From the IMG/VR virus record IMGVR_UViG_2718218126_000001: a stretch of 38,732 nucleotides of DNA; one strand, written 5' to 3'. Below the pieces are notes generated by a model. The model saw only the letters and a program-made list of their open reading frames with translations, did not search any database and was not told where the DNA came from. This document shows, piece after piece, positions 5,485-14,358 of this stretch. Numbering within the stretch: position 1 is the first letter of the stretch; the number at the start of each line of letters is the position of its first letter. The DNA is from a virus (taxonomy: Duplodnaviria > Heunggongvirae > Uroviricota > Caudoviricetes). Position numbers and translations under genes: made by a program.

Positions 5485-5617
5485 TGGTCTTTCCTCATTA
5501 CAGGTCAGTGGTCTTTAGTAGGGGATTTCAACGGTATCTGGCGTGTATTCGATGCAAAGTAACTGAATCGCCCCGGGAATCCTGGAGACTAAACTCCTTG
5601 AGAGAGAGGTAAACAGG

Positions 5618-5944
5618 ATGACTAAAAATACGCGCTTTTCCCCTGAGGTCCGTCAGCGGGCCGTTCGTATGGTTATCGAAAGCCAGAATGACTATGACTC
5701 GCAGTGGGCGGCCATCAGCTCCATCGCCCCTAAAATCGGCTGTACGCCTGAGACCCTGCGTACCTGGCTGCGTCAGTATGAGCGCGATGCCGGTGCAGGT
5801 GACGGCGGACTGAGCACCACTGAACGTCAGCGTCTGAAGGAACTGGAGCGTGAAAACCGCGAACTGCGCCGCAGCAACGATATCCTGCGCCAGGCTTCCG
5901 CGTATTTTGCGAAGGCGGAGTTCGACCGCCTGTGGAAAAAATAG
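5618..5944 (+). CDS. IS3-family transposase OrfA (HTH)
   Basis: 108 aa [19 protein letters not shown]...[31 protein letters not shown]; leucine-zipper-like C-terminus typical of IS3 OrfA. Confidence 0.9.
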
Positions 5945-6831
5945 CGCCTCTGGTGGATACCCTGCGTGGTGCGCACGGGGTCGGACCGGTATGCCACGAG
6001 CTGGCTGTCGCCCCGTCAACGTATTACCGGCATCGTGCGCATCAACGGCATCCGGATAAACGCAGTCAGCGGGCACAGCGTGATGACCTGCTGAAGCCGG
6101 AGATACAGCGCGTGTACGATGAAAACCACAGCGTGTACGGTGTGCGCAAGGTCTGGCGCCAGTTGTTGCGTGAGGGGGTGACCGTGGCCAGGTGCACAGT
6201 AGAACGGCTGATGAAGGTGATGGGGCTTGCCGGTGTGCGCCGGGGTAAAAAGGTCCGCACCACAGTCAGCCGGAAAGAAGCCGCTGCGGGTGACCGGGTG
6301 AACCGCCAGTTCGTGGCAGAACGCCCCGACCAGCTGTGGGTGGCTGACTTCACGTATGTGAGCACCTGGCAGGGCTTCGCTTACGTGGCGTTCATCATCG
6401 ATGTGTTCGCCGGCGTCATTGTGGGCTGGCGGGTCTCATCGTCGATGAAAACGACGTTCGTGCTGGATGCACTGGAGCAGGCGCTGTGGGCCCGTCGCCC
6501 GTCGGGCACCATCCATCACTCAGATAAGGGGTCACAATATGTGTCGCTGGCATACACTCAGCGGCTTAAGGATGCAGAGTTGCTGGCGTCAACCGGCAGC
6601 ACAGGCGACTCATATGACAACGCGATGGCGGAGAGCATCAACGGACTTTATAAAGCGGAGGTGATACATCGTAAGAGCTGGAAAAACCGCGCCGAAGTGG
6701 AACTGGCCACACTGACGTGGGTGGACTGGTACAATAACCGACGGTTGCTGGAACGACTGGGTCATATCCCGCCGGCAGAAGCGGAAAAGGCATATTACGC
6801 TTCCATCGGAAATGGTGGTCTGGCAGCCTGA
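5932..6831 (+). CDS. IS3-family transposase OrfB (DDE catalytic domain), expressed as OrfAB by -1 frameshift in the A-run at 5936-5941
   Basis: 299 aa in the -1 frame relative to orfA, overlapping at TGGAAAAAATAG. Contains [18 protein letters not shown] and [15 protein letters not shown] motifs of the DDE core. Confidence 0.85.
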
Positions 6832-6873
6832 GTTCACAGATAAAACACTCTCCCGGAAAACCGGGGCGGTTCA

Positions 6874-7128
6874 AACGCGATGGCGGAGAGCATCAACGGA
6901 CTTTATAAAGCGGAGGTGATACATCGTAAGAGCTGGAAAAACCGCGCCGAAGTGGAACTGGCCACACTGACGTGGGTGGACTGGTACAATAACCGACGGT
7001 TGCTGGAACGACTGGGTCATATCCCGCCGGCAGAAGCGGAAAAGGCATATTACGCTTCCATCGGAAATGGTGGTCTGGCAGCCTGAGTTCACAGATAAAA
7101 CACTCTCCCGGAAAACCGGGGCGGTTCA
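6874..7128 (+). repeat. Tandem 255-bp duplicate of the IS right end (copy of 6619..6873), including a second right terminal repeat
   Basis: Exact repeat seen in sequence; ORF 6880..7086 duplicates the last 68 aa of OrfB. Most likely a remnant of a second IS copy after rearrangement. Confidence 0.85.
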
Positions 7129-7184
7129 GAAATGTCCGCTCTCTCATCCTCTGGACAGAATGCGGCGCAGCTCGCCATGCCAAA

Positions 7185-7688
7185 ATGCTGGAAACAGAAC
7201 AGGCCTGGGAAGTTTTCGAAAAGCTGGAAGATTGTTATTTTAGACAGCGTCCAGAGAGGCGGAGTACAACTACCGATGACCGTACTCCCTTACGTGATGC
7301 CGTTAATATGCTGGTCGGTAAGAAAGGCATGATGTATCCCGATGCCTACACCATGATTCATCAACGCTTCGCCGTCTCTCACATAGAACAACTGTCACAG
7401 ACGCAAATGTTAGAGGCGATTGAATACATCCACTGCCTGCTACTCGATGAAAATCAGCCAACCATTCCAGATTTTTCTTTTATCACCACTATCAAAAATG
7501 GAAAAGTGACCAGGATGCGCCATGTTGCCAAAGGCGAACATCTGATGACGTTTGACGCTTTCAAAGAGATCGCTGAGCGGGCAGGGTATCTGGTGATCCA
7601 CAGCGACAACCTGCGAAGTATGACGCTGGATAAATTGATGGTAATGGGGAAAAAGTCGGTTGTATCCGTTGCTGATTCAGCATTTTGA
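7185..7688 (+). CDS. Phage regulatory / antirepressor-like protein, probably 5'-truncated by the IS-associated rearrangement
   Basis: 167 aa from ATG 7185, but the same frame is open back to the IS end at 7129 with no upstream start. Functional assignment weak. Confidence 0.35.
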   Translation: MLETEQAWEVFEKLEDCYFRQRPERRSTTTDDRTPLRDAVNMLVGKKGMMYPDAYTMIHQRFAVSHIEQLSQTQMLEAIEYIHCLLLDENQPTIPDFSFITTIKNGKVTRMRHVAKGEHLMTFDAFKEIAERAGYLVIHSDNLRSMTLDKLMVMGKKSVVSVADSAF

Positions 7689-7720
7689 CAGGTTGAATGT
7701 TTGGCGCGGTTATACTCTAT

Positions 7721-7797
7721 TTGCGCTTAAAAAGGTATTTAGTCACAACCAGCACGAGGCCGAATACTCTGTCAAAGTACCGCCCATGTAAAACTGT
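7721..7797. repeat. Direct repeat copy A (~77 bp, ~93% identical to 11322..11398); decayed copy of the 3' end of the membrane-protein gene
   Basis: ttgcgcttaaaaaggtatttagtcacaaccagcacgaggccgaatac... versus copy B; 4 mismatches and a 1-bp deletion that breaks the reading frame. Confidence 0.8.
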
Positions 7798-9817: not shown

Positions 9818-10483
9818 ATGAAAGCCGACAACTTAAGAATTATAGAGAATGGCAAATATGTTTTCGATATGTTCTTGGATACTGGTGAATTTTACTATAC
9901 AAGTCATGCCTTTGACACGAGAGAAGATGCAAAAAGCTGGATGGAAGAATGGCAGATTTGGGCAAATAATGTATCGAGTGGGAAAGTAAGTAGTATTTAT
10001 TATATTTTACAAGTGCCTGATACTTGGGCCGGTTCTTCAGATAAAAATAACCCTTACTCGGGACTTTATGTGAAAATAGGGCGTTCCAATAATGTGCTAA
10101 AAAGGTTGTCTAACCTGCAGACAGGTGCATTTGGTCAATTAATATTACACGCTTTGGAACCAGGTGGTTCAGAAAAAGAAAACTATCTTCATGAAAAATT
10201 TAGCAACGAAAGACGTCAAGGTGAATGGTTTGTTTGTACTAAGGAACTTACCAAGCATATATTTACAACATGGTTTAAAAACAAAATGCTCCCACCAGAA
10301 CATCAAATAAAAATAATGCAGCTCGCAGAAAGAATAGGTATTTATTCGCATGTTCATACACTAATGGGGGGGAAGCCAGACTTAGTAAACCCATCTATTA
10401 GTGAACCTTGGGAATGCGAAAAATATGTTTTGGTTGATATGATTTATAGCTCTTTAGCAAAGCAAGTTAATCATAAAAAATAA
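9818..10483 (+). CDS. T5orf172 / GIY-YIG-like domain protein (putative nuclease)
   Basis: 221 aa; SSIYYILQV...GLYVKIGRSNNVLKRLSNLQTG...EKENYLHEKFSNERRQGEWF matches the GIY...YIG...R...E pattern of T5orf172/MUG113 domains. Extended -10 TGaTATAAT upstream. Confidence 0.6.
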   Translation: MKADNLRIIENGKYVFDMFLDTGEFYYTSHAFDTREDAKSWMEEWQIWANNVSSGKVSSIYYILQVPDTWAGSSDKNNPYSGLYVKIGRSNNVLKRLSNLQTGAFGQLILHALEPGGSEKENYLHEKFSNERRQGEWFVCTKELTKHIFTTWFKNKMLPPEHQIKIMQLAERIGIYSHVHTLMGGKPDLVNPSISEPWECEKYVLVDMIYSSLAKQVNHKK

Positions 10484-10803: not shown

Positions 10804-11208
10804 ATGAGTGGATGGAAAGAGCCTTTTACATTAGCAGAACAGATACAATTAGCATTAAATTTAGGTTATGAGGCTGTACCAGATGAAGAGGCATATACTG
10901 GGGCATACTTCATTAAAGGTGGTAAGAAGTGGATCTTTAACATCATCGGTCTCAAAAAGACATTGAATATATCTTCAGATGATGAACTAAGAGGGCAGGA
11001 TTATGATGTTGATATGTATTTCGAAATTCGCCAAAATTGGGCACAATACCAAGATATGATCTTTGGAAGCGAAGATATCACTCCTTCACCTAAAAATGAA
11101 CTTACTTCAATTTACCATGACCTGCAGGTAACGGATGAACCCAGGGAAATGGTGTATCTTTCTGATGGGATGTGGCTGGATCCCAACGGACGAATTGTAC
11201 AACGATAG
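10804..11208 (+). CDS. Hypothetical protein (134 aa)
   Basis: Own upstream region with palindromes (aaatacgt/acgtattt at ~10694-10715); no recognisable motif. Confidence 0.45.
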   Translation: MSGWKEPFTLAEQIQLALNLGYEAVPDEEAYTGAYFIKGGKKWIFNIIGLKKTLNISSDDELRGQDYDVDMYFEIRQNWAQYQDMIFGSEDITPSPKNELTSIYHDLQVTDEPREMVYLSDGMWLDPNGRIVQR

Positions 11209-11317: not shown

Positions 11318-11923
11318 TTACTTGCGTTTAAAAAGGTATTTTGTCACGACCAGCACGAGGCCGAATACCTCTGTCAAAGTACCGCCCATGTACAACTGTA
11401 GTGTTAAATCCTCAAATTCCAGCTTACCTGCGCCGTCGGCAATAAATACACCATTCATTATCAGAAGTTGGCAAGCAAGGATAATCAGGAACCATTTCCC
11501 GTATCGTTTTTTTAGAGCGATTTCTGCTTCAAAATCTTTGTTGTTGAGTTGTTTGCGCTCATGCTCGGTATCAAGTGAATTCACCTGTTTCACAGATGTG
11601 AACTCGGTCAAGATTTTACTCTCAGTACGGGTGACTTGTTGAGAGGGTGTAACAGTTGGAATTCTTTTGCTAGACGCAGCTACAGCCATTTTGCGAGCTT
11701 CGGCAGCTCTTTTTCTGGCTATTCCGCGAATACGGACAGCCGTTTTTTTGGGGGCGTGCGAAACCTTTGGCTGAGGTGAAGTTTCGTCAGGAGACTGAAC
11801 CGGGGTTTCATCGTCCCCCGGCTCAACCTCTTCTGCTAACTGACGGTGTAGGTTGAGGGAATCCTTCAGTCGGCGTGCAACTTCCTGTTTGAAACGGCTG
11901 TTAAAATCGTCATCCGATGGCAT
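11318..11923 (-). CDS. Membrane-anchored protein: hydrophilic basic N-terminal region, two predicted C-terminal TM helices
   Basis: 201 aa; WFLIILACQLLIMNGVFIADGAG and TLTEVFGLVLVVTKYLF hydrophobic segments. Starts 9 nt after the peptidase stop; last 25 codons lie inside direct repeat copy B. Confidence 0.55.
   Translation of the reverse strand: MPSDDDFNSRFKQEVARRLKDSLNLHRQLAEEVEPGDDETPVQSPDETSPQPKVSHAPKKTAVRIRGIARKRAAEARKMAVAASSKRIPTVTPSQQVTRTESKILTEFTSVKQVNSLDTEHERKQLNNKDFEAEIALKKRYGKWFLIILACQLLIMNGVFIADGAGKLEFEDLTLQLYMGGTLTEVFGLVLVVTKYLFKRK
11322..11398. repeat. Direct repeat copy B (~77 bp), coding the 3' end of the membrane-protein gene
   Basis: Matches 7721..7797 with 4 mismatches and 1 indel. 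Confidence 0.8.
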
Positions 11924-11932
11924 TCTAAAGCG

Positions 11933-12421
11933 TTACCCCAACCTCAAGTTCTTTAAACGATAAGTCATCGCATCGTCAGATACGCCAAAATAATGCGCCA
12001 TTATATAACTTGGTTGGCCGTCAGCGTGCAGTTTTCTGACCTCATCAACCGGCATCAGAAGTTCTGCTGCGAACTTGTTCGCAAAAATTTCATCAGGATG
12101 CGTTCCGGCGCTTGCGGTTTCGCCACGTAAATCAACGTACTCATATTCATCACTATGCGATGCTTGCCGGGCGATGTAATGCCCCAACTCATGCCCACAT
12201 GAAAAACGTTGACGAACTTTGTTGTCATCACTGTTTAGAAAGATCGCTGGATCTTGATCTTTTTGTTTAATCAGTGCGCCAGAAACTTTCCCAGGAAGAT
12301 CGGTAATAAAAACATCTAATCCCATGTCGTGAGCAATTTTCGCTGGATCAACAGGGAAACCACGCCCGCACCAGAACGTGTCCAGCACTCGCCGGGCGTG
12401 CTCTCTTGGGTTGGTAGCCAT
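11933..12421 (-). CDS. ImmA/IrrE-family (DUF955, M78-like) zinc metallopeptidase
   Basis: 162 aa; HEXXH as CGHELGHY and downstream DEIFANKFAAELLMP, the family signature. RBS GGAGG. No fused HTH domain. Confidence 0.7.
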   Translation of the reverse strand: MATNPREHARRVLDTFWCGRGFPVDPAKIAHDMGLDVFITDLPGKVSGALIKQKDQDPAIFLNSDDNKVRQRFSCGHELGHYIARQASHSDEYEYVDLRGETASAGTHPDEIFANKFAAELLMPVDEVRKLHADGQPSYIMAHYFGVSDDAMTYRLKNLRLG

Positions 12422-12495
12422 AGCTCCTCCAGTTACTGCATTACGATTGTTGGTCGAAATATAGACAACATGTTCCGTACCACTTTCCTGTGAAA

Positions 12496-12510
12496 GTGCA
12501 AATTCTGCAC
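12496..12510. promoter_or_regulatory. Perfect inverted repeat GTGCA-N5-TGCAC upstream of the peptidase operon; candidate operator
   Basis: gtgcaaattctgcac seen in sequence, ~75 bp upstream of the peptidase start on the minus strand. Confidence 0.3.
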
Positions 12511-12750
12511 TTCTGGTACGATATTAACTGTTAGTAGTAAAGTCTTCCAGATAAATCACTTTAAAATCTTGTGAATTGCTTGCTTTTTACGCTGCATTGT
12601 GGATGGCTCAATGTTTCCAGTAAAAACATACATGATAATCATGACATTAGTGGTTTTTTAAGCGTCCATATGTTTCTTAAAAAAATGGATGCCACAAGAG
12701 GCCAGATGAGAACGGAAAGGGAAGGCTATTACATGTGTGATTTATTACAT

Positions 12751-12766
12751 CTGTAAAAAAATACAG
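12751..12766. promoter_or_regulatory. LexA-box-like CTGT-N8-ACAG motif (weaker match)
   Basis: ctgtaaaaaaatacag in the divergent intergenic region. Confidence 0.3.
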
Positions 12767-12855
12767 ATCTAACTTGATCTTTTCATTGAAGTTTTTCTTG
12801 GTCCTGGATAGGATCTGGAGGTTGCGAAGTTTTTAGAGTCGCATCAAAGGGAAAG

Positions 12856-12879
12856 CCCTGACAGCGCCAACTGTCAGGG
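12856..12879. other. Perfect 9-bp stem / 6-nt loop hairpin of unknown function
   Basis: ccctgacag-cgccaa-ctgtcaggg in a 540-bp non-coding region. Confidence 0.3.
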
Positions 12880-12988
12880 CCATACAAAAACATCGGTTAA
12901 TGCTTTCGTTGAGATCTCGGTTTGGGAGATTACCTCAACCGGGATCCCGTGTAAAGCATTCATTACCGAAAATGATATAGGTCAATGA

Positions 12989-13267
12989 ATGAAACACATC
13001 TGTAAAAAGTCACATCGTCACGACAGTATGTTTGATGTTCTTTCTGCAAATCAGGGTAACGTTGGGCGGCACAAGTGTTGTGGATGTGCCTATGATAAAG
13101 GTATGTGGCATGCATTAATCGGCGTTCCGCGTGCGGTTGATGACTCTGTTTTAGGTGATTTACCCGAAAGCCAGGCTGGGCATGTCCGTCATAAAGATGC
13201 TTTTGAAGCATATAATATGGGCTATGACCATGGGATGCATAAAAAAGCCTACGGTATGGCCTCATAA
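12989..13267 (+). CDS. Hypothetical Cys/His-rich small protein (92 aa)
   Basis: Followed immediately by a strong intrinsic terminator, which favours this strand over the overlapping minus-strand ORF. Function unknown. Confidence 0.4.
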   Translation: MKHICKKSHRHDSMFDVLSANQGNVGRHKCCGCAYDKGMWHALIGVPRAVDDSVLGDLPESQAGHVRHKDAFEAYNMGYDHGMHKKAYGMAS

Positions 13268-14089: not shown

Positions 14090-14140
14090 TGTTCATTATT
14101 CCCTCATTGTATCTGGCGTTATGACAAATGCCATAAAATA

Positions 14141-14156
14141 CTGTATAAATGTACAG
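14141..14156. promoter_or_regulatory. LexA (SOS) box, strong match to CTGT-N8-ACAG consensus
   Basis: taCTGTataaatgtACAGgt, 22 nt upstream of the ATG at 14179 and overlapping a TGACAA / TATAAA promoter-like pair. Confidence 0.5.
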
Positions 14157-14178
14157 GTAATGGCGTTAGGGGGAAGAC

Positions 14179-14358
14179 ATGAATATTCAAGAATCTATAG
14201 GCGAACTACCGGAAACATGCCGGGCTGTTATCAAGCGTAAGGACGGACACATCGTTGGTGTGCGTGTTCTGACCGATGATGAACGGATTGCCAGCCTGAT
14301 GGCGTTTCTCGAGTTGGCAGAAATAGCTGGATATACTATTACACCCCCTGACGCGTAA
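14179..14358 (+). CDS. Small protein (59 aa), probably SOS-regulated; not in the supplied ORF track
   Basis: ATG with strong RBS AGGGGGAA; translation MNIQESIGELPETCRAVIKRKDGHIVGVRVLTDDERIASLMAFLELAEIAGYTITPPDA; LexA box directly upstream. Confidence 0.45.
   Translation: MNIQESIGELPETCRAVIKRKDGHIVGVRVLTDDERIASLMAFLELAEIAGYTITPPDA

Follow-up and report, generated by a model that had tools for sequence, protein, structure and literature searches.

The window analysed here is a stretch of 38,732 nucleotides from a virus of the Caudoviricetes (IMG/VR virus record IMGVR_UViG_2718218126_000001), and this work concerns two adjacent genes on its minus strand, at positions 11318-12421. The upstream gene encodes a stand-alone zinc peptidase of the ImmA/IrrE (M78) family and the downstream gene a small membrane protein. 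We consider it likely that they form a two-gene toxin-antitoxin and anti-phage module of the RosmerTA kind, belonging to the subtype without a helix-turn-helix (HTH) domain that is represented by Gordonia phage Kita.

RosmerTA systems combine a zinc-peptidase antitoxin with variable toxins and are defensive (Millman et al. 2022). The RosmerTA pair of phage Kita, RmrA_D25 (YP_009301393) and RmrT_D5 (YP_009301394), was validated experimentally (Ernits et al. 2023, PNAS, PMC10440598). RmrT_D5, the C-terminal region of which is predicted to be membrane-localised, was toxic on its own and caused rapid depolarisation and permeabilisation of Escherichia coli. RmrA neutralised this toxin only partly, and the pair protected E. 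coli against the BASEL phages Bas54 and Bas59 (PMC10440598).

The gene pair and its products

Both open reading frames (ORFs), at 11933-12421 and 11318-11923 on the minus strand, were found as described in a first-pass annotation made from the sequence, including the gap of 9 nt between them. This spacer (11924-11932, minus strand) separates the stop codon of the peptidase gene from the start codon of the putative toxin gene, the junction reading TAA CGC TTT AGA ATG, and is consistent with an operon and with translational coupling. A read-through fusion of the two ORFs was considered and rejected: they share a frame here, but at other loci the distance varies from -35 to +9 nt and the frame is inconsistent. 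A literature search under the protein accessions of the pair found nothing.

The gene at 11933-12421 (minus strand) encodes 162 amino acids and would be the antitoxin, similar to rmrA, as judged from Pfam, PADLOC, AlphaFold2, homology and published transposon data. Its product carries the motifs CGHELGHY and NKFAAELLMP and matched Pfam PF06114, Peptidase_M78 (IrrE N-terminal-like), at 7.7e-18 over residues 32-157, which is the match that the first-pass annotation had expected. Peptidase_M78 was the sole Pfam domain of the protein, with no HTH domain in its 162 residues, and no HTH Pfam match was obtained among the ORFs neighbouring the pair in the window. The description as a stand-alone ImmA/IrrE peptidase holds. 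H77, E78, H81 and E111, the zinc-binding and catalytic residues, were retained in 98-99% of 138 peptidase homologues.

PADLOC matched the peptidase to capP (2.4e-25) and, partially and via the catalytic domain, to RmrA. Only positions 3-151 of the 242 positions of the capP profile were covered, and only positions ~145-291 of the RmrA profiles, which are 357-400 positions long. The AlphaFold2 model of the peptidase had a mean predicted local distance difference test score (pLDDT) of 91.1. Its nearest structures in Foldseek were CapP 7t5t (E 2e-6), IrrE 3dte and PprI 8sln, of which the model covers just the N-terminal peptidase domain; the TM-scores were ~0.6-0.66 when normalised to the query and ~0.41 when normalised to the target. 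For 7t5t the two values were 0.66 and 0.41, and the peptidase chain stops after the peptidase domain.

The gene at 11318-11923 (minus strand) encodes a membrane protein of 201 amino acids, a putative pore-forming toxin similar to rmrT according to a family profile, hhalign and the transposon data. Hydropathy gave hydrophobic segments at residues ~142-164 (transmembrane helix TM1) and ~173-199 (TM2), and AlphaFold2 gave helices at 4-32, 119-164 (a juxtamembrane part and TM1) and 173-199 (TM2), so that both methods concurred on the layout. The two C-terminal transmembrane helices of the first-pass annotation were thereby borne out. In the part ahead of these helices, residues 1-40 are acidic and residues 41-110 are basic (net +9).

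Three parts can be distinguished in this protein. Residues 4-32 (11828-11914, minus strand) are predicted to form an N-terminal cytoplasmic helix, with block pLDDT of up to 87; L19, L23 and R27 within it were invariant in the alignment of enterobacterial members. Residues 34-118 (11570-11824, minus strand) constitute a basic, low-complexity linker, predicted to be disordered from AlphaFold2, charge and alignments. pLDDT was below 50 over residues 34-68 and 85-118, and the linker varied in length from near zero to ~100 residues across homologues. Residues 119-199 (11327-11569, minus strand), finally, form the conserved core as seen by hydropathy, AlphaFold2 and an alignment across phyla: a juxtamembrane helix with the motif LKKxY, TM1, a short acidic loop and TM2. 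G164, E185, L197 and F198 were invariant in this core and Q152 and N157 nearly so. With LKKRYGK ahead of TM1 and KYLFKRK behind TM2, the positive-inside rule would place both termini in the cytoplasm.

No match to the membrane protein was found in Pfam, NCBIfam or PADLOC (E<=0.1), and its only PHROG match was phrog_5346, a PHROG with no assigned function. Homology to a known lysis or structural family, which would have spoken against the proposal of a membrane effector, was not detected in Pfam, NCBIfam or PHROG; the prophage encodes its own holins and endolysin downstream of Q.

Relation to the RosmerTA pair of phage Kita

The peptidase of the window was 43% identical to Kita gp32 (RmrA_D25) over 157 residues (BLASTP, E 1e-41). 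Conversely, gp32 scored 178 bits against a hidden Markov model of those peptidases that partner the two-helix membrane family. For the membrane proteins the relation was much more distant. When the E. coli toxin was compared directly with phage genomes by tblastn, no match was obtained, and the link to Kita surfaced via a Rhodococcus (actinobacterial) member of the membrane family, which found Kita gene 33 by tblastn at 2e-3, and via profiles. Kita gp33 (RmrT_D5) matched the membrane family profile in hhalign with 94.8% probability (E 5e-8, 78 columns) and in hmmsearch with 33.3 bits.

At the Kita locus, a gene for a 178-residue 'metallo-protease' overlaps a gene of 119 codons by 4 nt. This synteny supports the remote homology of the toxin to RmrT_D5. 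Because of the peptidase identity, the profile match of the toxin, the same gene order and the same behaviour in PADLOC, the pair of the window is a member of the Kita-type, HTH-less RosmerTA family.

Conserved pairing across phyla

The pair was found in 431 of 5,426 complete E. coli genomes, among them the sequence type 131 (ST131) reference strains EC958 and NCTC13441. Out of 1.84 billion cluster representatives, the profile of the membrane family retrieved 680 (E<=1e-3). The juxtamembrane LKKxY motif and the two-helix hairpin are common to them, and most have 100-170 residues.

Pairing was examined in one genome per species, which gave 23 loci from Gammaproteobacteria, Nitrospirota, Cyanobacteria, Bacillota, Desulfuromonas and Actinomycetota. 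In 21 of them a peptidase-type ORF lay directly upstream of the membrane gene on the same strand, at a distance of -35 to +9 nt. All but one of these upstream ORFs contained HExxH and spanned 160-194 residues (20/21; a single over-extended ORF had 306). The remaining one, at locus L026, was without HExxH, yet it matched Peptidase_M78, as did every upstream ORF sampled (7/7, that of L026 included). In the reverse direction, two of three distant peptidase homologues (52-56% identity) were followed by a membrane partner. Among the 122 neighbouring ORFs of the 23 loci, searched with Pfam and PADLOC, no third family recurred except between two near-duplicate cyanobacterial loci. No conserved HTH neighbour was present in the 23 loci either, so that an overlooked HTH partner, which would have favoured a classical repressor switch, was found neither there nor next to the pair in the window. 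The pair is a self-contained cassette.

Published transposon data from ST131

EC958 carries the same peptidase accession as E. coli S42, the strain whose prophage corresponds to the window (WP_000224749.1), and a membrane protein that is 98% identical. For this strain, sequencing of transposon insertion sites (TraDIS) with 502,068 insertion sites, one per 10 bp, defined 315 essential genes (Phan et al. 2013). EC958_2158, described as a predicted Zn peptidase (COG2856, PF06114), is one of the 315, and EC958_2159 and EC958_2157 contain insertions (Phan et al. 2013). EC958_2173, annotated HTH_XRE, was essential as well; by matching of the old locus tags it falls on the prophage repressor.

An independent reanalysis included a second ST131 library, NCTC13441, and took scores <=0 as essential. 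The peptidase gene (EC958_2158 / NCTC13441_01940) scored -0.084 in EC958 and -0.072 in NCTC13441, the membrane protein gene (EC958_2159 / NCTC13441_01939) +2.72 and +3.71. An essential peptidase next to a disruptable membrane gene is what an antitoxin and its toxin usually show, and this pattern also shows expression of the cassette in the lysogen. Both clpP (+3.16, +2.92) and lon (+3.41, +2.41) were dispensable in the two ST131 strains, and neutralisation therefore apparently does not need these proteases.

Another gene of the ST131 prophages showed a strain-dependent score. EC958_2160 (L040 5694-6392), convergent with the toxin gene, encodes a 232-residue 'putative lysogenic protein' (phrog_5606) and scored -0.60 in EC958 (essential) and +1.73 in NCTC13441 (not essential). 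It is absent from the window, where an ORF at 10804-11208 takes its place, and may be another immunity or antitoxin-like gene.

Prophage setting and true position of the cassette

The window and a prophage of E. coli S42, integrated at tRNA-Ser beside mtfA, are identical. An IS3-family element together with a deletion has cost the S42 prophage its cI-like HTH gene, cro, ydaT, its replication genes and the 5' end of an ORF6N gene, and the prophage in the window is defective. At ~5500-7185 of the window, ~5.5 kb are replaced by an IS3-family element, whose transposase has a programmed frameshift, and by a second transposase fragment. In the same interval the intact relative RM10042 has genes for a 130-residue HTH repressor, for a Cro-like protein, for replication and for a DnaB helicase, along with ydaT, and the ST131 prophages carry the same immunity and replication interval.

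In RM10042 and EC958 the pair lies ~9.5 kb from the repressor. It is part of a variable segment between ORF6N/LprI and DUF1367/DUF1364/Q in the intact relatives and is directed against early-right transcription. The initial impression that the pair occupies the position of cI and rex in lambdoid phages was an artefact of the deletion, since the IS3 element and the deletion removed the immunity and replication genes and the intact relatives place the pair elsewhere.

Homologous pairs were found in diverse surroundings: between the tRNA-Ser attachment (att) site and int in prophages of Klebsiella oxytoca and of other E. coli, within an island of arsenic-resistance and type VI secretion system (T6SS) immunity genes in Leclercia, beside a P4-type primase gene (P4-like element) in Pectobacterium and, chromosomally, between thiamine and glycosyltransferase genes in Endozoicomonas. 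Together with the region upstream of Q, these prophage, island, P4-like and plain chromosomal sites show the cassette to be mobile.

To either side of the cassette the flanks are mosaic. In the window, the gene that diverges from the peptidase gene (12989-13267, plus strand) encodes a Cys/His-rich protein of 92 residues (phrog_3941); ST131 and phage vB_EcoM-705R4 have there, on the opposite strand, a 77-residue protein (phrog_5550, L009 10503-10736). In the variable cargo segment beside the pair, at 9818-10483 (plus strand), a 221-residue protein with T5orf172/MUG113 (GIY-YIG-like) domains is encoded. It matched PDC-S57 of PADLOC weakly (E 0.004) and could be another accessory or defence gene.

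The peptidase gene itself contains, at 12327-12358, an exact match to a 32-nt spacer of a type I-E CRISPR (clustered regularly interspaced short palindromic repeats) array, which in E. coli strain GCM39-10-2-9-3-1 adjoins queE (L010 1502-1533). Directly ahead of the protospacer stands ATG, a functional protospacer-adjacent motif of type I-E systems. Immunity against elements with the peptidase gene has therefore been acquired by some strains of E. coli.

Upstream region and direct repeat

The ~255 bp 5' of the peptidase start were near-identical to the ST131 copy, and this only up to ~12677. The resulting block (12422-12677, minus strand), delimited by alignment to the ST131 copy, moves with the pair in E. 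coli prophages. A weak sigma-70-like match lies in it at 12661-12632, and the block presumably includes a promoter belonging to the cassette itself. In the Klebsiella and Leclercia copies, the DNA upstream was unrelated save for the ribosome-binding site.

The divergent control region proposed in the first-pass annotation does contain a palindrome (CTGT-N8-ACAG at 12751-12766) and a GC-rich hairpin (12855-12880). These elements do not travel with the pair, however: the block in common with ST131 does not extend to the LexA-like palindrome, of which ST131 has just half. Judging from these alignments, palindrome and hairpin are not part of the module. Control of the pair by LexA was rejected on the same grounds, the palindrome being outside the common block and the upstream DNA not being conserved across genera.

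A strong LexA-box candidate, TACTGTATAAATGTACAGGT, with 16/20 consensus matches occurs at 14139-14158 of the window and is exact in RM10042 and S42. It sits ~20 nt upstream of a gene for 59 amino acids (ORF 14179-14358, plus strand; phrog_340, no assigned function). As for the prophage repressor of the intact relatives, it is a short protein of the HTH type with no self-cleaving peptidase domain annotated in the record. Because of the strong LexA box and a repressor of this type, the 59-residue protein is a candidate for an SOS-controlled anti-repressor.

At the other end of the cassette, the 3' end of the toxin gene had been regarded as a recombination footprint, and this was substantiated. 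By blastn, 11319-11399 formed a direct repeat with 7718-7797 (92.6% identity over 81 bp, E 4.5e-28). The copy at 7718-7797 (minus strand) is a remnant of the last ~80 bp of a toxin gene and falls between the truncated ORF6N gene and the one for LprI. The repeats bracket 3.5 kb of cargo with LprI-family, GIY-YIG/T5orf172 and small hypothetical genes. In FXCREC073 the corresponding copy between the ORF6N and LprI genes measured 78 bp and was 89.7% identical, and a second place of match was seen in most genomes with the pair. The repeat is a genuine recombination scar.

Discussion

If the pair is indeed a RosmerTA module of the Kita subtype, its working can be outlined as follows. The cassette would be transcribed from its own promoter, antisense to the early-right operon, and expressed in the lysogen. 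The downstream gene would give rise to a small inner-membrane protein with both termini in the cytoplasm and a hairpin that carries the polar residues Q152, N157 and E185; by analogy with the Kita homologue, this protein may oligomerise into a pore and depolarise the cell. The upstream gene is predicted to encode an M78 zinc peptidase, cytoplasmic and catalytically competent, by which the toxin would be kept harmless, and the cytoplasmic N-terminal or juxtamembrane part of the toxin would be the most likely place for the peptidase to cleave or bind. An infecting phage may disturb this balance, upon which the toxin would act, the infected cell die or stop growing and the population of lysogens be protected. 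The same toxin-antitoxin logic would also make the cassette hard to lose, which fits its survival in a prophage devoid of immunity and replication genes.

The direction of the interplay deserves particular attention. The idea of a toxin or abortive-infection module instead of an ImmR/ImmA switch, with a membrane effector coupled to the peptidase, was retained from the first-pass annotation. There, the peptidase had been thought to activate the toxin. TraDIS and the Kita data suggest that this direction is probably the reverse. Since TraDIS scores the peptidase gene essential and the membrane gene freely disruptable, the most likely role of the peptidase is to restrain the toxin and not to activate it. 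Neutralisation is probably catalytic. We tentatively go one step further and consider, as a less likely option, that the HTH-less peptidase is a catalytic antitoxin that continuously clips the N-terminal or juxtamembrane segment of the toxin without ClpP or Lon, and that a phage inhibits or titrates the peptidase and so frees the pore. If this were true, such protease-based neutralisation would be a mechanism not known to have been shown for a toxin-antitoxin system so far, and drugs aimed at the peptidase would be lethal to the pandemic E. coli of ST131.

Several observations weigh against assigning the pair to RosmerTA in this way. The similarity of the toxin to Kita RmrT is remote, with 24% identity over 78 profile columns, and for the Kita proteins themselves AlphaFold failed to model a complex (PMC10440598). 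Canonical RmrA has an N-terminal HTH domain of the Xre type that is absent from the peptidase of the window; the PADLOC models do not recognise the toxin and match the peptidase via its catalytic domain only. HTH-type Rosmer systems were reported to render ClpX or ClpP essential, whereas clpP and lon are dispensable in ST131. The neighbourhoods of the 23 loci were only weakly enriched in defence genes, with single matches to mad3, mad8, PycC-like, Csa3 and AriA-like. As for the transposon data, the scores of the peptidase gene lie just at the threshold of essentiality, transcription running out of the transposon into the toxin gene may have had a share in them, and the old EC958 tags were matched to RefSeq genes by annotation and gene order, not by coordinates.

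The same data bear on other explanations of the pair. The membrane protein could be an inactive pro-form from which the peptidase, upon sensing infection, removes the N-terminal region and thereby switches on the pore, as in protease-activated bacterial gasdermins. The conserved N-terminal helix and the long disordered linker could act as a removable pro-region, the catalytic residues of the peptidase are conserved, and its relatives CapP and IrrE are signal-activated proteases. We nevertheless regard such activation as improbable. It is loss of the peptidase and not of the membrane gene that is counter-selected in TraDIS, and the Kita homologue is toxic at full length and partly rescued by its peptidase. 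Moreover, the presumed pro-region is almost missing in many members of the family (100-120 residues), and the peptidase lacks the second domain that forms the groove by which CapP senses single-stranded DNA.

A pure addiction module, which would secure retention of the prophage or island and have no anti-phage role, would produce the same antitoxin signature in TraDIS. The persistence of the pair in a defective prophage without immunity and replication genes, and neighbourhoods made up mostly of housekeeping genes instead of defence islands, would agree with it too. It is an unlikely account of the cassette all the same, given that E. coli with the homologous pair of Kita is protected from two BASEL phages, that other RosmerTA systems are defensive and that the cassette occupies accessory-cargo positions of prophages and of a P4-like element.

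Least likely is a prophage induction switch or transcriptional regulator of the ImmA/ImmR, IrrE/DdrO or CapP/CapH type, in which the peptidase would cleave an HTH repressor encoded elsewhere, for instance the short cI-like one of the prophage, with the membrane protein as an accessory: the best profile and fold matches are indeed CapP and IrrE, and the 130-residue HTH repressor of the intact relatives has no annotated self-cleaving peptidase domain, but an HTH gene was adjacent in 0/23 loci, the pair also occurs outside prophages and persists in the window though the repressor is deleted, loss of an anti-repressor should be harmless and yet the peptidase gene scores essential, and a much better LexA box precedes the 59-residue gene at 14179, a likelier SOS-linked induction factor.

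A RosmerTA module of the Kita subtype would give a function to a pair of 'hypothetical proteins' in E. coli genomes, and it would account for a prophage 'Zn peptidase' that has stood in the list of essential EC958 genes since 2013. Kita-type RosmerTA would then be no oddity of actinophages, as the family comprises at least 680 sequence clusters in many phyla that the PADLOC v2 models overlook. It may further serve as a simple system for studying how a pore-forming toxin is controlled by an M78 peptidase without HTH or sensor domains.

Comparison with known systems

By its described layout, PanT_D11 (Ernits et al. 2023) resembles the membrane protein of the window: it has an N-terminal unstructured region, a short helix and a C-terminal membrane region, and it depolarises cells. 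Its antitoxin, however, is a Panacea-domain protein and not a peptidase.

With ImmA/ImmR of ICEBs1 and with the repressor/anti-repressor systems of phages, the pair shares an M78 family protein on a mobile element. It differs from them in having no adjacent repressor, in lying outside the immunity region and in its conserved partner, a membrane protein. In addition, loss of a peptidase gene of the window type is counter-selected.

CapP/CapH, which regulate CBASS and other defence operons, and IrrE(PprI)/DdrO of Deinococcus have the same peptidase fold and active site and provided the best matches in PADLOC, in PDB sequences and in Foldseek. CapP and IrrE, however, have a second domain, and CapP holds single-stranded DNA in the groove between its two domains, whereas the peptidase of the window has a single domain. 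CapP and IrrE furthermore cleave an adjacent HTH repressor, while the pair described here has neither an HTH partner nor a regulated operon.

Canonical RosmerTA systems, for which PADLOC models an RmrA of ~360-400 residues and of which spr1629/spr1630 of Streptococcus pneumoniae and E101 of E. coli are examples, come closer. They also combine a zinc-peptidase antitoxin with a variable toxin, their antitoxin gene is essential in transposon screens and they have a defensive role. The same pattern of essentiality was reported for rmrA in Pectobacteriaceae, where ClpX is essential as well.

The closest counterpart is the Kita pair. In both cases, a stand-alone M78 peptidase of ~160-180 residues comes first and is followed, across a tight junction, by a small protein with a C-terminal membrane region, and both pairs are phage-borne. 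The residues of the Kita toxin that align with N157, E185, G188, L197 and F198 are kept. Both pairs behaved alike in PADLOC too, with capP as the top match, RmrA matched partially and the toxin without a match. Differences concern the host phylum, the type of phage and the size of the toxin, which has 201 residues in E. coli and 119 in Kita, the E. coli protein having a longer N-terminal helix and a basic linker of ~85 residues. Accordingly, the system does not represent a new kind but adds an E. coli member, hitherto unannotated, to an experimentally validated family.

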